DNA of 64,000 bases from Pseudomonadota bacterium (lineage in GTDB: Bacteria; Pseudomonadota; Gammaproteobacteria; Steroidobacterales; Steroidobacteraceae): contig CANHFH010000002.1 of assembly GCA_947459825.1 (NCBI GenBank), positions 17,150 through 81,149 of the forward strand, in the 5' to 3' direction. The notes under the pieces were generated by a model that saw only the letters and a program-made list of their open reading frames with translations, was not told the DNA's origin and did no database searches. A program made the position numbers and the translations under genes. This document shows, one piece after another, positions 16,637 through 23,001 of the stretch (position 1 is the first letter of the stretch; each line of letters begins with the position of its first letter).

Positions 16637-17689
16637 GTGACCGTGACCTTGCGCCGTTGGCTGCTCGCCGTCGTGGTACTGGCCTGCGTCGCCGGCATCG
16701 TCGGCTCGCGTGCGCAGCAGGCCGAGATCACCATCCGCATCGCTTTCCTCGCTTCGCAGGACGACGAGGACTACATCGGCGCGGTGGCGTTCCGCGAGGC
16801 GCTGCGGCAGCGGCTCGGCGACCGCGTCGCCGTGCAGATCTATCCGTCCGGGCAGTTCTGCGGCAACGAGCGCGAGTGCATGGAGGCGCTGCAGAGCGGC
16901 ATCCTCGAGATGCACCAGACCACCATCGGCGGCCTCGCAGGGCTCTACGGGCCGGCGCAGGTGTTCGATCTGCCGTACACCTTCGCCGACGACGCCGTGG
17001 CCGAGTGCGTGTTCGACGGCGAGGTGCCGCGGGCGATGGGCGAGGCGATCCTGCAGCAAGGTCTCGGGCTGCGCCTGATGGCGGTCGGCAACACCGGCGG
17101 CTGGCGCAGTTTCGCGATGACCGAGCGGCGCATCACGCGCGTCGCGGACCTCGCGGGGCTGCGCATCCGCACGCTGCCGTCGGCGCTCGAGCAGGAGATG
17201 GTGCGCGAGCTCGGCGCGAGCCCGATGGCGCTGCCGTTCTCGGAGATCTACACCGCGCTCGGCGCCGGCATGCTCGCCGGCACCAAGAACAGCATCCAGG
17301 ACGTGATGGGGATGAAGTTCGACGAGCACATCCGGCACCTCTTCGTGGACCGCCACGCCTACATGGCGTCCTTCTGGTGGTATTCGGAGCAGGGTTGGCA
17401 GCGCTTGCCGCCCGATGTGCAGCAGGCGGTGCGCGAGGCGTTCGTGGCGCTCGCCGCGGCGACGCGCCGCGCGGCCAAGGACCGCGAGGCTCCGGCGCTC
17501 GCCGCGTTCGAGACCGGCGGCGGCACCATCGACTACATCACGGATGCGCAGCGCGCCGAGTTCCGCGCCGCGACCGCACCGTTGCGCGAGTGGTATGCGT
17601 CGCGCTACCCCGGCGACTGGCTGCGTCGCGTCGATGACGCGGTCGCCGCTTGCGGCGCGCGTGCCGCGCCCACCGATCCATCGACCTGA
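16637..17689 (+). CDS. TRAP periplasmic solute-binding protein (DctP family)
   Basis: GTG start, signal peptide, and DctP-like blocks (EALQSGILEMHQTT, GLRIRT, YTALGAGMLAGTKNS). The gene order Q-M-P is inverted relative to the common P-Q-M. Confidence 0.8.
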   Translation: MTVTLRRWLLAVVVLACVAGIVGSRAQQAEITIRIAFLASQDDEDYIGAVAFREALRQRLGDRVAVQIYPSGQFCGNERECMEALQSGILEMHQTTIGGLAGLYGPAQVFDLPYTFADDAVAECVFDGEVPRAMGEAILQQGLGLRLMAVGNTGGWRSFAMTERRITRVADLAGLRIRTLPSALEQEMVRELGASPMALPFSEIYTALGAGMLAGTKNSIQDVMGMKFDEHIRHLFVDRHAYMASFWWYSEQGWQRLPPDVQQAVREAFVALAAATRRAAKDREAPALAAFETGGGTIDYITDAQRAEFRAATAPLREWYASRYPGDWLRRVDDAVAACGARAAPTDPST

Positions 17690-17703
17690 AGGAGACGACC
17701 GTC

Positions 17704-18150
17704 GTGAGAGTGCTGTTCGTGGATGCAGGGAACTATTGCCGCTCACCGGTGGCCGAGATCGTGGCGCGTGCGATGGCCGTGCGCAGCGGGGCGGCGGGCT
17801 GGTCCTTCTCTTCGGCCGGCCTCAAGGACAAGCACGCCGGCGACTCGGCGGATCCGCGCTCGATCGCCGCCTGCGCGGCGCGCGGCTACGACCTCACCGC
17901 GTTCCGCTGCCGTGAGATCACCGCGGCGGACTTCGCGGCCCATGACCTCATCCTCGCCATGGACCGCGACAACGCCGCGCAGCTCGAGGCGCGTCGGCCC
18001 GCGGGCAGCGCCGTGCCCGTCCGTCTCTTCCTTGACGACCGTGAGGTGCCGGACCCGTACTACGGCGGCGATGACGGGTTCGGGACGATGATGTCGCAGA
18101 TCGAGGAGGGCGTAAGGCAGCTCTTGGGCGGTGCCGGTCCGGGGGGCTGA
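17704..18150 (+). CDS. low-molecular-weight phosphotyrosine phosphatase homologue with P-loop nucleophile Cys replaced by Asp
   Basis: The N-terminus VRVLFVDAGNYCRSPVAE compares with canonical V(L/I)FVCxGNxCRSP. The codon gat at the nucleophile position was read directly (gtg ctg ttc gtg gat gca ggg aac tat tgc cgc tca). The general-acid motif VPDPYYG is conserved. Confidence 0.75.
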   Translation: MRVLFVDAGNYCRSPVAEIVARAMAVRSGAAGWSFSSAGLKDKHAGDSADPRSIAACAARGYDLTAFRCREITAADFAAHDLILAMDRDNAAQLEARRPAGSAVPVRLFLDDREVPDPYYGGDDGFGTMMSQIEEGVRQLLGGAGPGG

Positions 18151-18230
18151 GCACGGCCGACGGCGGCGCTCCACGCGGCCGCCCGGGGGGGGCGCGATGG
18201 TCTCCGGCCATATGCGCTATATTGATTCCA

Positions 18231-18787
18231 TGGGAGATATCACGGTACTGCTGGGCCGGGCCCGCGACGGCGACCGGGGGGCGTTCGACGGCCTCTTCGA
18301 TGCCCTGTACCCGGATCTGCGGCGCATCGCCCATGCGCGGCTCGCCTCGCACCAGCGCAACACCATGCTCAACACCACGGTGCTGGTGCACGAGTGCTTC
18401 CTCAAGTTCACGGCTGCCGATCGGCTGACGCCGAAGGACCGCTCGCACTTCCTGGCCTACGGTTCGCAGATGATGCGGTCCATCATCGTCGATGTCGCGC
18501 GGGCCCGTCAGGCGGAGCGGCGGGGCGGCGACGCCGCGCACACCACGCTCAACACCGATGTGCGCGACGGCGTGCCCGCGGGCGAAGACGAGATCATGGA
18601 TGTGCACGAGGCGCTCGAGCAGCTCGCCGGGCTCGATGCGCGCCTCGCCAAGGTGGTCGAGATGCGCTACTTCGGCGGTCTGCGCGAAGCCGAGATCGCC
18701 GAAGCGCTCGGCGTCACCGAGCGCACCGTGCGCCGCGATTGGGAGAAGGCGCGACTGCTGCTGGCGGCGGCGCTGCGCACGCGCTGA
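18231..18787 (+). CDS. ECF-type RNA polymerase sigma factor (kinase-associated, TIGR02999/ECF43-like from memory)
   Basis: The N-terminus is MGDITVLLGRARDGDRGAFDGLF. Region 2 reads TTVLVHECFLKF and region 4 reads VVEMRYFGGLREAEIAEALGVTERTVRRDWEKARLLL. Confidence 0.85.
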
Positions 18788-18823
18788 GCGCCGTCTTCCG
18801 CCGTCCGGCGTCCGACCGATCGA

Positions 18824-18856
18824 CGGCGCCGCATCGCGCGAGCGCCGTTTTTTTTT
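18824..18856 (+). terminator. rho-independent terminator after the sigma gene
   Basis: A GC stem GGCGCCGC...GCG(CGA)GCGCC is followed by a run of 9 T (18848-18856). Confidence 0.6.
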
Positions 18857-18981
18857 CGCTCCGATGTCCGGTCGTGCCTTGCCGTTCCGTATTCACTGGC
18901 AAGCAGGCGTTGTGCGGCGGTCGATGGACCCGCGACGCCGGGCGATCCGTCGCCATAACGCAAAGATATCGGAGGTCCGTG

Positions 18982-19194
18982 ATGCCCCTTCTACCGCGCT
19001 TGATGCCCCAGTGGTCCGTGCTCGATCGTCTGCTCGATCAGGCCCTCGACCTCGCCCCCGAGGCGCGCGAGCGCTGGTTGGAGAGCCTCGTGGCCGAGGA
19101 TCTCGCCGTGCGCGCCACGCTGCGCCAGCTGCTCGATGTGCAGTGCGGCATCGAATCCGGTCTCTATCTCGAGCGCCTGCCGAAGGTCGCTTGA
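18982..19194 (+). CDS. 70-aa stand-alone paralogue of the Ser/Thr kinase N-terminal domain
   Basis: ATG 18982 follows GGAGG. MPLLPRLMPQWSVLDRLLDQALDLAPEARERWLESL...TLRQLLDVQCGIESGLYLERLP aligns from residue 1 with the kinase N-terminus MKLLSDLSSQWAVINRLLDEVLALEPSEREAWLDRL...TLRGLLTAQAGIETESFLDTLP, at roughly 40% identity by eye. Confidence 0.65.
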   Translation: MPLLPRLMPQWSVLDRLLDQALDLAPEARERWLESLVAEDLAVRATLRQLLDVQCGIESGLYLERLPKVA

Positions 19195-19214
19195 TGCGCG
19201 GCGCGGCGGAACGG

Positions 19215-19254
19215 ACCTGGATGTCCGCTTCCGCCGCCGTTTTCCGTACTCGTA
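19215..19254 (+). terminator. putative rho-independent terminator after the small gene
   Basis: GGCGGAACGGAC-ctggat-GTCCGCTTCCGCC (one bulge) is followed by GCCGTTTT. Confidence 0.5.
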
Positions 19255-19301
19255 GCTGAGCAGCCGACGAACGGCTTCGCCGAGGTGACCCTTCCGGGGA
19301 G

Positions 19302-19670
19302 ATGATGTCCAGCATCACGAGCCGATCCATCGCACCCGCATCGCTCCATCCGCACCTCCGCAGCGGAGGTGTCCTCCTTTCCCTGATGTTGGCCTTCGCC
19401 GCTGCCAGCCTCTTCGCCGCCGGCCTGGACTCTCCGACGACCAAGTCCGACGGCGTCACCATCCCCTACGGCGACCTCGACCTCAGCACCGTCAACGGCG
19501 CGTTCGAGCTCGAGCGCCGTCTCGTCGAAGCGGCGAGCATCGTCTGCATCGATCTCGACTCGCCCGCGGTGCCGCGCGAGACCTACGACCGCTGTCGCAT
19601 GGACGCGGTCTCGGGGGCTATACTCATCTTGCGTCGACCGCCCTCCGCGGTCGCCGCGGTGACCAGTTGA
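19302..19670 (+). CDS. UrcA-family secreted protein
   Basis: It has a signal/TM segment, then the family hallmark VTIPYGDLDLSTVNGAFELERRLVEAASIVC. Confidence 0.7.
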   Translation: MMSSITSRSIAPASLHPHLRSGGVLLSLMLAFAAASLFAAGLDSPTTKSDGVTIPYGDLDLSTVNGAFELERRLVEAASIVCIDLDSPAVPRETYDRCRMDAVSGAILILRRPPSAVAAVTS

Positions 19671-19735
19671 CCGGCGGGGCGGTCTGTCGCGGGTGATCGA
19701 CCGCGCCGTCATCGCTCCGCGACGGACGGCTAACC

Positions 19736-22534
19736 TTGAAACTGCTCTCCGACCTTTCTTCGCAATGGGCGGTCATCAACCGGCTCCTCGACGAGGTGCT
19801 GGCACTCGAGCCGTCCGAGCGTGAGGCCTGGCTCGACCGCCTCGCCCCCGAACACCATGGCCTGAAGGGCACGCTGCGCGGGCTGCTGACGGCGCAGGCG
19901 GGCATCGAGACGGAGTCCTTCCTCGACACCCTGCCCAGGATGTCCGAGCCGGCCCCCGACCTGAAGCCGGGCGACGAGATCGGCCCCTACCGCATCCTCG
20001 AACGCATCGGCAGCGGCGGCCAAGGCACGGTCTGGCTGGCGCAGCGCGCCGACGGTCAGCTCAAGCGCAAGCTGGCCATCAAGCTGCCGCAGCTCGCCTG
20101 GGCCGAGGGCCTCGCGGCGCGCATGGAGCGCGAGCGGGACATCCTGGGTGCGCTCGACCACCCTTACATCGCGCGGCTCTACGACGCAGGCGTCGACCAG
20201 CGAGGTCGACCGTTCCTCGCCATCGAGTACGTCGAGGGCGTCAACCTCGACCGGTACTGCGACGAGCAGCGTCTCGACATCCGGGCGCGGGTCGCGCTCT
20301 TCATGAACATCCTGGAGGCGGTGCAGTACGCACACACCGCGCTCGTGGTGCACCGCGACCTCAAGCCGGCCAATGTGCTGGTCAACGCCAAGGGCGAGCC
20401 GAAGCTGCTGGATTTCGGCGTCTCCTCTCTGGTCGCCCAGTCCGTGGTCGAGGGCGAGGATGCCGCGACGCAGACCGCGACCCGCGCCATGACGCCGCGC
20501 TACGCGAGCCCGGAACAGATGGAGGGGAAGCGGCTCGGCGTCGGCTCCGATGTGTATTCGCTCGGGGTGATGCTGCATGAGCTGCTGAGCGGCGGATCGC
20601 CCTACGCGGTCAAGCGCGGCTCGGTCGCAGAGTACGAGCACGCCATCCTCGAAGAAGATGTGCGCGCGCCGAGTCGGGTGCAGATGAGCGAGGTGATCGC
20701 CTTCGCCCGCGACTCGACGCCGAGGCGCCTCGCACGCCAGCTGCAGGGCGACCTCGATGCCATCGTGCTGCGTGCGCTGGCCCGTGACCCGCGTGAGCGT
20801 TACGGCTCGGCGCTCGCCCTGCACGACGACCTGCGTCGCTGGTCGACCGGCCGCGCCGTACAGGCCCGGCCACCGTCGGCCTGGATAAGTCTCCGCAAGT
20901 TCCTGGTCCGCAACCGCCTGATCGCAGGCGGCATCACCGCCGGCGTGGTGGCGGTGATGGTGGCGGCCTTGGTGGCGGTGCAGCAGGCCGGCGTCGCCCG
21001 CGAAGAGGCGCGACGCGCCAACGCCACGCGCGACTTCGTGATGGGCATCTTCAACGACGCCAACCCTGCATTGCATGCCGGGCGCGATGTCACGGTGCGC
21101 GAACTGCTCTCGGCCAACGAGCAGAAGCTCATCGACCGGCTGTCCGGCGACCCGATGCTGCAGGCCGATGTGCTCCATTCCGTCGCGCAGGTCTGGGACC
21201 GCTTCGGCGACTTCAGCCGGGTGGTGGATGTCCACCAGAAGCGCGCATCGCTGCTCGGCAGCAACGGCGCTCCGAACGAGTCGGTGGCGCTCGCCTTGCT
21301 CGAGCAAGGCAAGGCGTTGGCGGTGGTCGAGCGGGTGGGGGAGATGGCCGCCGTGCTCGACCGCGTGCGCGACCAGCTGCCTGTGGAGGACATGTCGCCG
21401 CAGGTGCGTGAGCGCTACGAGTGGCAACGCGGCTGGGTGGCGCTGTATGTCGGCGACCGCCGCGAAGCCAAGGAACACTTCACGCGCTCGGTCGAGGCCG
21501 CGCGGATGTCCGGCGATCTCGCCTCGCAGGTCCGCGCATTGTTCGGGCGCAGCGCGAGCGAGACCTGGGTGAACCGGGTCGCGCCCGACCGCGACCGGGC
21601 TGCGGCGCTGCGTGACCATCGCGAGGCGGTGCAGCTGCTCGAGCGGTCGCAGCTCGACCGCCTGCCGCGTTTCGACCAGCGGTTGCAACTGCTGTCCAAC
21701 CTGTTCTGGCTCGGCGAGTACCGCGAGGGCTGGCCCTTGGTCCGTCAGCAGATGGCGGAATCGGATCAGCTCTACGGCGAGCATCCACCCGTCGCGTCGG
21801 CGCTGCCGTTCTTCTACTTGGCCTATCTGTGGAGGCTCGGTCGTCCGCAGGAGGCGCTCGACTGGATGGCCGCGCGCACGCGCCATCAGCGCGCCTCGGG
21901 GACCTTACCGCCTGGACCGCCCCCCTCGCGTGAGGTCGCGCTGCAGGCGCGATTGTGGCTCGCGGTGGGCCAGCCCGCAGAAGCCCGCGACCTGATCGAC
22001 GGGTGGCGTCGGACGAACCTCGACCCTCCGGTGGGGGACCAGCTGCGCATCGGCGTGACCGAGCTCGAGTGGGCGCAGGCCCATTCGACGCCCGCCGAGG
22101 TGCTTCGGCTGTTGGCCGTCAAGCCGTGGTCCGCGCTCACCGACGACGACGACAGCGAGTGGCCGCTCTATCCGCTTTGGCACCGAGGGCTTGCTCTGGA
22201 GCGTCAGGGTGACAGCGCGACGGCCATCCCGCTCCTCGAGACGGCCGTCCGTAAGGCCCATGACGTGTTCGGGGAGGGGCACCCGCGGGTGGCGTTGGTC
22301 CGGCTGTCGCTGGCCTTCGTCCGTTGGCGCGCGGGCGCCGCGGAGGACGCGACCGGGCGGAACATCCTCGCTACGAGTCTGGCGGGGATCGTCACGGACC
22401 TCGAGCAGGGCATGCCGCCCGAGCACCCGGCCTTGAGGGAGGCTCGCGTCTTTTTGGCGCATATCCGTGGCGCGTCCGCCACAGAAGACGACATCCGACG
22501 CTGGAGGGACCCCACCGCCACCTTCTACCCCTAA
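19736..22534 (+). CDS. membrane-anchored Ser/Thr protein kinase with long C-terminal helical-repeat (TPR-like) region
   Basis: The TTG start is supported by alignment with the small paralogue. Kinase motifs present: GSGGQGTVWLA, AIK, HRDLKPANVLV, DFG, SPEQ. One TM segment reads LIAGGITAGVVAVMVAALVAV, followed by a C-terminal domain of about 520 aa. Confidence 0.9.
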   Translation: MKLLSDLSSQWAVINRLLDEVLALEPSEREAWLDRLAPEHHGLKGTLRGLLTAQAGIETESFLDTLPRMSEPAPDLKPGDEIGPYRILERIGSGGQGTVWLAQRADGQLKRKLAIKLPQLAWAEGLAARMERERDILGALDHPYIARLYDAGVDQRGRPFLAIEYVEGVNLDRYCDEQRLDIRARVALFMNILEAVQYAHTALVVHRDLKPANVLVNAKGEPKLLDFGVSSLVAQSVVEGEDAATQTATRAMTPRYASPEQMEGKRLGVGSDVYSLGVMLHELLSGGSPYAVKRGSVAEYEHAILEEDVRAPSRVQMSEVIAFARDSTPRRLARQLQGDLDAIVLRALARDPRERYGSALALHDDLRRWSTGRAVQARPPSAWISLRKFLVRNRLIAGGITAGVVAVMVAALVAVQQAGVAREEARRANATRDFVMGIFNDANPALHAGRDVTVRELLSANEQKLIDRLSGDPMLQADVLHSVAQVWDRFGDFSRVVDVHQKRASLLGSNGAPNESVALALLEQGKALAVVERVGEMAAVLDRVRDQLPVEDMSPQVRERYEWQRGWVALYVGDRREAKEHFTRSVEAARMSGDLASQVRALFGRSASETWVNRVAPDRDRAAALRDHREAVQLLERSQLDRLPRFDQRLQLLSNLFWLGEYREGWPLVRQQMAESDQLYGEHPPVASALPFFYLAYLWRLGRPQEALDWMAARTRHQRASGTLPPGPPPSREVALQARLWLAVGQPAEARDLIDGWRRTNLDPPVGDQLRIGVTELEWAQAHSTPAEVLRLLAVKPWSALTDDDDSEWPLYPLWHRGLALERQGDSATAIPLLETAVRKAHDVFGEGHPRVALVRLSLAFVRWRAGAAEDATGRNILATSLAGIVTDLEQGMPPEHPALREARVFLAHIRGASATEDDIRRWRDPTATFYP

Positions 22535-22650
22535 ATATCCGACAGTTTGTCGGGGTGTCGATGTCCGGTTCCGGCAGGTCAGTCCGTATCCTACGGTGAA
22601 GATTGACTAAATCCGTGATTACCGTCACATCATCGATTCGGAGATGCCCC

Positions 22651-22893
22651 ATGAACAACCGCCGCACCGCCTCCCGCCTCGCCACTTTCGCCGCCCTTGC
22701 CGTCGCCTCGTTCAGCGGCGCTTCGGCCGATGCCGCCACCCTGACCATCGCGGGTCCCGGCAACTCGGGCATCTCCTTCGTCATCGTTCTGGGAGGTACG
22801 GCCTTCACGATCTCATTGACGGGTGTCACGCAGTCGGGCGGTGCGGGGATCTGGATGCGCACGGAGCCCACGCAGTCGGGCGGCGCGGGCTGA
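22651..22893 (+). CDS. small secreted protein of unknown function (80 aa precursor)
   Basis: ATG follows GGAG. The signal peptide is MNNRRTASRLATFAALAVASFSGASADA. Third-position GC is high. The C-terminal motif TQSGGAG is duplicated (acgcagtcgggcgg.gcggg twice). Confidence 0.5.
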   Translation: MNNRRTASRLATFAALAVASFSGASADAATLTIAGPGNSGISFVIVLGGTAFTISLTGVTQSGGAGIWMRTEPTQSGGAG

Positions 22894-23001
22894 TCAGACC
22901 CTGAACGGCGCGGCCCGTCGTCGTCTCCGACGGGTCGAGCGCTCTTCCGGTATCCTCCGCGCGCCGGCATCGTCCGGCGCGCGGAGTGTCTACCGACCGA
23001 C

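Follow-up and report, generated by a model that had tools for sequence, protein, structure and literature searches.

In ordinary sigma factors, an acidic DxxDxxQE patch in region 2.2 (the DAED motif) touches the beta' clamp of RNA polymerase. Extracytoplasmic function (ECF) sigma factors of group ECF43 are without this motif and have the group consensus QTTA; their activation by kinases is a recognised mechanism, of which few pairs have been studied. In EcfP of Vibrio parahaemolyticus, the partner of PknT, the motif is STTA and, according to its published descriptions, the second Thr is phosphorylated (PMC8999054, PMC8103513). In EcfK of Xanthomonas citri the motif is QATE, the supplement to its description gives the phosphopeptide AGLQA-T51-ELVHEAWMR, and the linker between sigma2 and sigma4 carries T104, T106, S108 and S110 (PMC13147305). 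EcfK is phosphorylated by PknS, of which residues 1-364 have been solved (PDB entry 9EED); for the 83-residue N-extension of PknS three or four helices had been predicted; the extension was not visible in the crystal and was said to be one that "may play a functional role" (PMC13147305). Here we describe a locus in a 64-kb stretch of DNA (the window) from a metagenome-assembled genome of 2.6 Mb and 70% G+C, whose nearest relatives among public genomes are Steroidobacteraceae from lakes and other aquatic sources. The locus contains genes for an ECF43-type sigma factor and for a 932-residue transmembrane Ser/Thr kinase, and we consider it likely that they form a phosphorylation-gated sigma module like EcfK/PknS and EcfP/PknT. 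The original prediction, made from the window alone, had proposed such a module, and homology now supports it because PknS is the closest solved kinase, in the sigma factor the sequence NTTV takes the place of the DAED motif, and Thr50 of the sigma factor aligns with the phosphorylated Thr51 of EcfK.

An ECF43-type sigma factor with a probable promoter and a terminator of its own

The sigma gene and its signals are as follows.
18218-18223, + strand: TATATT box, 6 nt ahead of the sigma ATG, a probable housekeeping-type -10 element
18230-18787, + strand: ECF43-type sigma gene, 185 aa (PF07638, TIGR02999)
18822-18856, + strand: intrinsic terminator of the sigma gene, a stem at 18822-18847 followed by T9, identified from folding and from its conserved T-run

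The sigma product matched Pfam family PF07638 (Sigma70_ECF) end to end (residues 1-183, E-value 2.5e-45) and scored 176 bits against the NCBIfam model TIGR02999, which has a cut-off of 126. A match to Sigma70_r4_2 at residues 128-175 completed the two-domain ECF layout of sigma2 and sigma4 only. The start of the gene had been placed at 18231, one base too far downstream; the in-frame ATG is at 18230, giving 185 residues. Region 2.2 reads N48-T49-T50-V51 and then LVHE, with no acidic residue at the DAED position. This segment, LN-T-T50-VLVHECFLK, aligned with the EcfK phosphopeptide without a gap, placing Thr50 opposite phospho-Thr51, and on the basis of this alignment we take Thr50 to be the equivalent of the experimentally mapped EcfK site. 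The linker between sigma2 and sigma4 also holds a group of Thr residues (H-T105-T106-L-N-T109-D). By its match to the sequence models, its uncharged, Thr-bearing region 2.2 and a Hanks kinase neighbour in place of an anti-sigma factor, the protein has the features predicted of an ECF43 sigma factor.

The sigma gene was confirmed to have its own terminator, formed by an 11-bp G+C-rich stem (18822-18847) and nine T residues (18848-18856); the T-run was kept in relatives. This terminator was found by folding and was not called by a simple promoter and terminator scanner. On the 5' side, TAT was invariant in seven aligned relatives and TATAT(T/C) was kept in the six closest of them, 6-8 nt upstream of the ATG. 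No Shine-Dalgarno sequence was found 5' of the ATG (positions 18197-18232), leaving the TATAT(T/C) box as the sole conserved upstream element. The box together with the missing ribosome-binding site suggests that the sigma mRNA is leaderless and is transcribed from a housekeeping-type promoter. Leaderless housekeeping expression and a dedicated terminator would fit a sigma factor that is made constitutively and is inactive until phosphorylated. We rejected autoregulation of the sigma gene, as its upstream region has the conserved TATATT box and no copy of the promoter-like motif described below.

A PknS-like receptor kinase encoded nearby

The kinase gene has the following parts.
19736-22534, + strand: kinase gene, TTG start, 932 aa, third gene 3' of the sigma gene
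19736-19945, + strand: N-terminal helical domain (N-domain), residues 1-70, homologous to the 83-residue N-extension of PknS
19988-20824, + strand: Hanks Ser/Thr kinase domain, residues 85-363 (Pkinase, Pfam PF00069, E-value 9.4e-40), motifs intact
20918-20980, + strand: single transmembrane helix, residues 395-415, from hydropathy, with basic residues N-terminal to the helix
21002-22534, + strand: periplasmic solenoid like tetratricopeptide repeats (TPR), residues 423-932, plus the stop codon, from AlphaFold2 (AF2), Foldseek and Pfam TPR_12

The position of this gene, third after the sigma gene, and the layout of its product (a 70-residue helical N-domain, a Hanks domain, one transmembrane segment and helical repeats) were as originally predicted; the repeats cover about 510 residues. 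A non-ATG start (TTG or GTG) was kept in relatives. All catalytic motifs are present (GSGGQG92, K116, HRDLK206, DFG226 and SPE258). Hydropathy found one hydrophobic helix at about residues 395-415 with RKFLVRNR just ahead of it, and since these basic residues are N-terminal to the helix the kinase domain is predicted to be cytoplasmic. The same architecture was seen in 57 of 57 complete related kinases, each of which has a membrane helix about 30 residues past the kinase domain and then about 310-600 further residues. An AF2 model of the C-terminal 510 residues, made from a 54-relative alignment, had about 24 paired helices and high scores (pLDDT 92.5, pTM 0.90). Foldseek matched this model to the TPR scaffolds of CNOT10, APC/C subunits, LGN and OGT (E-values 1e-5 to 1e-4), which are protein- or peptide-binding solenoids, and Pfam TPR_12 matched kinase residues 815-872.

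The best solved relative of kinase residues 1-405 was the PknS structure 9EED, with an E-value of 7.5e-56 as against 7.6e-38 for PknB, and the alignment to 9EED ran from residue 8 to residue 369 and so included the N-terminal extension. When the profile of the N-domain alone was searched against all PDB sequences, PknS residues 3-54 were the only match (E-value 6e-6). The N-domain, as represented by 59 members, had no match to a Pfam family at E-values up to 10, and in a search of 1.84 billion proteins its profile found 1,858 protein clusters at an E-value of 0.001 or less; in most of the top matches listed the domain was at the N-terminus of a protein of 800-1000 residues. With its catalytic Hanks domain, helical N-extension of about 80 residues, single transmembrane helix and periplasmic TPR region, the kinase has the make-up of a PknS-like receptor kinase. 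The N-domain is also found in other company: a 1228-residue protein (P0133, at L103:3001-6687) combines the same N-domain and a Hanks kinase domain with Trans_reg_C and HTH_77, and there was no PF07638 sigma gene within 3 kb of it.

Pairing of sigma and kinase genes across genomes

We collected the 80 closest related sigma loci from one-genome-per-species collections. In 58 of these 80 loci a Hanks kinase gene begins no more than 1.5 kb downstream, on the strand of the sigma gene, and 52 of these 58 kinases were found to carry the N-domain; in 12 further loci there is a kinase gene at some other position. The association was also seen from the other side, as a PF07638 sigma gene was present within 2.5 kb of four of six distant N-domain kinases that had been sampled blind to sigma. 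In the source genome itself, strong PF07638 sigma genes and N-domain kinases each number exactly two. Its second ECF43-type pair is on contig C116 (3621-6452; locus L002), where 22 nt separate the sigma stop from the kinase start and where the contig ends inside the kinase gene. The sigma factor of this pair is 61% identical to that of the window, has an exact QTTA and carries an Asp in its linker (TLDTD). In the same genus, orthologous sigma genes have the kinase gene immediately 3' of them. By these counts the pairing of the window sigma factor with the kinase is beyond chance.

A promoter-like motif that recurs at sigma-kinase loci

The remaining features of the locus, from the sigma terminator on, are as follows.
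18865-18892, + strand: P1, promoter-like motif TGTCCGG-N15-CCGTAT, 90 nt 5' of the 70-aa gene; 33.5 bits (core matrix)
18982-19194, + strand: 70-aa gene, a paralogue of the kinase N-domain, with GGAGG at 18971-18975
19222-19249, + strand: P2, promoter-like motif TGTCCGC-N15-CCGTAC, 5' of urcA; 28.9 bits
19302-19670, + strand: UrcA-family gene (urcA), 122-aa exported product (TIGR04433)
19678-19731, + strand: stable hairpin in the gap from urcA to the kinase gene, lacking a T-run, from folding
22562-22589, + strand: P3, promoter-like motif TGTCCGG-N15-CCGTAT, 28 nt 3' of the kinase stop; 31.6 bits
22651-22893, + strand: 80-aa secreted-protein gene, an open reading frame with a Shine-Dalgarno sequence (GGAG at 22640), probable output gene
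3' of the 80-aa gene, + strand: nitroreductase gene, last in the locus order

When the spacer between the sigma gene and the 70-aa gene was aligned among six relatives we saw an invariant GTGTCCGGT and, 13 nt on, CGT(T/G)(C/G)CGTAT. The corresponding motif, TGTCCG(G/C)-N15-CCGTA(T/C), has three copies in the window, all in the sigma-kinase locus. A search of the window for GTCCGG-N15-CCGTAT gave two matches (18866 and 22563) where 0.05 were expected, and the third copy, with CCGTAC, is at 19222 ahead of urcA. With a position weight matrix (PWM) built from 13 sites in six genomes, P1-P3 scored 29-34 bits, the next best site on either strand of the 64 kb scored 6.5 bits, and P1-P3 were the top three sites of the whole 2.6-Mb genome, although these scores are partly circular because the matrix included the three window sites. 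The pattern search, and the count over the 80 loci given below, are free of this circularity. The spacing and the CGTA -10 element of the motif fit an ECF promoter.

Each of P1, P2 and P3 was conserved in relatives, P3 even in one whose sigma factor is 78% identical to that of the window. P2 overlaps the 3' arm of a hairpin that follows the 70-aa gene; in a relative without urcA the second site is directly 5' of the kinase gene, and relatives without the 70-aa gene have one site between sigma and kinase. Across the 80 loci the looser pattern TGTCC-N16-19-CGTA(T/C) was found 59 times, about 15-fold more than the 4.0 +/- 1.7 expected from first-order Markov simulations. Twelve of these 59 matches are within 150 nt past a sigma stop on the same strand, and another eight are divergent and within 260 nt upstream of a sigma gene. 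Many motif matches are 5-50 nt ahead of an N-domain kinase gene, in Burkholderiales, one Bryobacteraceae genome and Steroidobacteraceae. We infer that this sigma factor reads the motif.

The motif also allowed candidate targets to be sorted. The original prediction had named the small secreted-protein gene at 22651 and two proteases as nearby regulon candidates, and had looked to a motif shared upstream of these genes and the sigma gene; the search found the motif ahead of 22651 and not ahead of the sigma gene or either protease gene. The two S8 proteases (25.5-32.1 kb) were rejected as regulon members, their best upstream sites scoring -4.8 and -6.1 bits in comparison with 29-34 bits for P1-P3. 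The PWM likewise found no motif 5' of the nitroreductase gene or directly 5' of the kinase gene.

Two observations concern copies of the motif beyond this arrangement. The divergent copies upstream of sigma genes (about 100-260 nt) are in loci L027, L032, L034, L039, L044, L047, L077 and L096; at several Burkholderiales loci they face lipoprotein or membrane-protein genes, which suggests conserved divergent targets. Weaker copies of 17-23 bits occur elsewhere in the source genome, at C17:14828(-), C115:2718(-), C162:3478(+), C23:28790(+) and C64:6471(+), upstream of genes for a 128-aa membrane protein, HlyD-like export functions and small membrane proteins. These weaker copies may mark further targets of one of the two sigma factors.

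A conserved free copy of the kinase N-domain

The statement that no anti-sigma gene follows the sigma gene stood in so far as Pfam and NCBIfam gave no zinc-finger or membrane anti-sigma match, but it had overlooked a conserved 70-aa gene directly downstream. This gene is an open reading frame that starts with ATG and has GGAGG six bases upstream, and over its full length the product is 46% identical to kinase residues 3-70 (E-value 1e-19). It retains all of the residues that are invariant or nearly invariant among 59 aligned N-domains, and its AF2 model is a three-helix bundle with an additional short helix (pLDDT 83). We found 21 homologue clusters with 73-92% identity, mostly of exactly 70 residues; the homologue sequences that were inspected all finish in LP(K/E)(V/F)A. 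Pairwise ratios of nonsynonymous to synonymous change (dN/dS) were 0.09-0.27 at synonymous distances up to 1.3, values by which the gene is judged to be under purifying selection, and in the same relatives the 70-aa protein is 84% identical where the whole kinase is 74% identical. The protein has no zinc motif (HxxxCxxC), no hydrophobic helix and no match in Pfam or NCBIfam, and so lacks the hallmarks looked for in an anti-sigma factor.

Besides the source genome, the sub-clade to which the 70-aa gene is confined takes in three Steroidobacteraceae assemblies from public databases and several contigs from metagenomes, in all of which the gene order is LMW-PTP (low-molecular-weight protein tyrosine phosphatase), sigma, 70-aa gene, urcA, kinase, small secreted gene and nitroreductase. 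In another genome of the genus the sigma, 70-aa and kinase genes are present without urcA, and both the 70-aa gene and urcA are absent from more distant relatives. P1 and the 70-aa gene appear to have arisen by partial duplication, in tandem, of P2 and the 5' end of the kinase gene, with urcA seemingly inserted afterwards between the kinase gene and P2. We do not claim a wider family of free N-domain copies; short matches elsewhere mostly run into a kinase domain or look truncated or frameshifted.

Small exported proteins and neighbouring genes

The gene between the 70-aa gene and the kinase gene encodes a UrcA-family secreted protein, as had been noted before: it scored 43 bits against TIGR04433 (cut-off 25), and its 122 residues include a hydrophobic segment like a signal peptide at around residues 19-44, both as expected of the family. 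UrcA is a periplasmic protein that owes its name to uranium induction in Caulobacter. The urcA gene was found in the closest relatives only. The hairpin that follows it (19678-19731; -38.5 kcal/mol, z -2.2) has no T-run and is a possible attenuator of kinase expression.

The 80-aa secreted protein downstream of P3 has a duplicated TQSGGAG tail and no Pfam family match; a homologue is present in L025, and loci L018-L022 have a similar-sized gene at the same place. With P3 ahead of it, the gene is a probable output gene of the sigma factor. The 5' untranslated region between P3 and this gene contains a conserved inverted repeat, GTGATTAC(C/G)GTCAC, at 22615-22628, possibly an operator or RNA element, and after the gene there are two very stable hairpins at 22906-22986, one with a perfect 13-bp stem (z -4.6 relative to shuffles).

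One more gene belongs to the locus order.
17650-18150, + strand: LMW-PTP-like gene, first in the locus order, ahead of the sigma gene

Its product reads VDAGNYCRS, with Asp where the original prediction puts the family's nucleophile Cys, and the Asp is kept in five relatives. We rejected this gene as a component of the module, its linkage to the sigma gene being limited to the closest relatives.

A proposed switch and its alternatives

Taking these results together, we propose the following switch, in which each step is a prediction from the sequence comparisons. The sigma gene would be an insulated unit, with a housekeeping-type -10 box, a probably leaderless mRNA and its own terminator. While unphosphorylated, the sigma factor would bind RNA polymerase poorly, since its region 2.2 has N-T-T-V where the acidic DAED patch would be. 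The TPR solenoid would let the kinase sense a cue in the periplasm, which is probably a protein or peptide. We infer that the kinase then phosphorylates the sigma factor, at Thr50 and possibly at linker residues Thr105, Thr106 or Thr109, restoring negative charge. The phosphorylated sigma factor would bind core polymerase and transcribe from P1, P2 and P3. P1 would drive the 70-aa free copy of the N-domain and P3 the 80-aa secreted protein, and P2 would drive urcA and, by read-through past the T-less hairpin, the kinase gene, giving positive feedback. The free N-domain would probably compete with the N-domain of the kinase, most likely for the sigma factor or else for kinase dimerisation, giving negative feedback, and would in this way do part of the job done elsewhere by an anti-sigma factor. 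We speculate that the co-induced exported proteins (UrcA-like and 80-aa) could be ligands or partners of the sensor.

The 70-aa protein is probably a feedback modulator of the switch. A fuller version of this idea is tentative, and we would not bet on it: that the N-domain of more than 1000 ECF43-associated kinases docks the sigma factor, that the sigma-induced free copy competitively inhibits sigma phosphorylation as negative feedback, and that the UrcA-like and 80-aa proteins may be ligands of the TPR sensor. If it is true, the 70-aa protein would act like an anti-sigma factor by mimicking the kinase, and negative feedback would be built into the switch.

Several points weigh against the proposed switch. 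The linker site that is important in EcfK (T106) is not surely alignable with this sigma factor, where its counterpart may be Asn108; a terminator and two genes part the sigma gene from the kinase gene here, unlike in most relatives; the second, 61%-identical sigma factor of the genome might read the same motif; the matrix scores share the circularity described above; and the N-domain has no detectable likeness to anti-sigma domains or solved folds by Pfam, PDB profile or Foldseek searches.

The alternative that survives best, although we think it unlikely, is that the 70-aa protein works as a genuine anti-sigma factor, sequestering the unphosphorylated sigma factor until the kinase, or phosphorylation, frees it. 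The gene directly follows the sigma gene, the usual position for an anti-sigma gene, it is conserved under apparent purifying selection, and its product is modelled as a small helical bundle. RskA (4nqw_B) was even among three weak Foldseek matches to that model; however, it was only the third (E-value 8.8, probability 0.06, TM-score 0.37), the best E-value was 7.2, and none was significant. There was also no sequence or profile likeness to anti-sigma families, and because the searches found only PknS we claim no anti-sigma homology for the N-domain or the 70-aa protein. Moreover, the gene is behind a putative sigma-dependent promoter and would not be co-transcribed with the sigma gene, and most related sigma-kinase pairs are without it, so it appears to be an addition to the core module.

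It seems still less probable to us that the motif is the site of another regulator, or the promoter read by the paralogous sigma factor of contig C116. The sigma gene has no copy of the motif, whereas many ECF sigma factors autoregulate, and, as noted above, the genome has weaker motif-like sites elsewhere and a second sigma gene. However, the motif is laid out like an ECF promoter, with two parts in a fixed geometry and orientation and a CGTA -10 element; among Steroidobacteraceae, Burkholderiales and Acidobacteriota it accompanies PF07638 sigma genes, where it is typically found between the sigma stop and the kinase; and the three best sites of the genome are all in the window locus.

We give little credence to a third reading, in which the terminator and the two inserted genes have uncoupled the pair, the sigma factor being an orphan or otherwise controlled and the kinase having other substrates. 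That spacing speaks for it, but all close relatives keep the gene order sigma, small gene, urcA and kinase, sigma and kinase genes are adjacent in more distant orthologues, and the genome has two N-domain kinases for two such sigma factors. In addition, a kinase should be needed by this sigma factor, since it keeps the phospho-acceptor Thr and has no acidic residue at the DAED position. Last, although P1 with the 70-aa gene resembles P2 with the 5' end of the kinase gene and one relative has both copies in direct tandem, the 70-aa reading frame is hardly likely to be a dead remnant of that duplication, already disfavoured by its low dN/dS, its conserved start, strong GGAGG and stop after LPKVA, and its being better conserved than the kinase itself.

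Comparison with known systems

Under the proposed kinase-gated switch, the wiring of this locus would have a sigma gene that is insulated and not autoregulated and a kinase gene that is behind a putative sigma-dependent promoter. The candidate motif, repeated at related sigma loci of several phyla, predicts that the regulon is local and compact, and also what it excludes. The free copy of a PknS-type N-extension, kept by selection, would be a direct handle on what the N-domain binds, and we regard the variant as of moderate interest because the 70-aa copy offers a route to study a widespread domain.

The closest likeness is to EcfK/PknS (PMC13147305, 9EED). Both kinases have an N-extension of about 80 residues, a Hanks domain, one transmembrane helix and periplasmic TPR, and both sigma factors have a Thr at the T51 position, an identical LVHE after region 2.2 and a Thr cluster in the sigma2-sigma4 linker. 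The sigma factors differ in that EcfK retains one acidic residue (QATE) where the window sigma factor has none (NTTV). The kinase of the window is longer than PknS (932 residues vs 833), and its solenoid has about 11-12 helix pairs compared with three annotated TPRs in PknS. There are no type VI secretion genes near the window locus, and its sigma and kinase genes are parted by a terminator, the free N-domain gene and urcA.

EcfP of V. parahaemolyticus, as described, shares with the window sigma factor the absence of acidic DAED residues and an adjacent Thr pair (STTA vs NTTV). The predicted logic would also be the same, in that the sigma factor is inactive until phosphorylated and the second Thr is the acceptor in EcfP (PMC8999054, PMC8103513). 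The reported output there is polymyxin resistance, as opposed to the small exported proteins predicted here, and a free N-domain gene does not appear in those two descriptions.

Classical pairs of ECF and anti-sigma factors such as SigK-RskA resemble the window locus in having a gene for a small helical protein right after the sigma gene, and in both cases the protein may bind the sigma factor or its activator and restrain signalling. Unlike that type, the 70-aa protein has no anti-sigma similarity, zinc motif or membrane helix; its paralogue is the N-terminus of the kinase, and it is apparently made from a sigma-dependent promoter. The core module is of a known class, that of the kinase-switched sigma factors, and the free N-domain gene with its wiring is a clade-specific variant of it.

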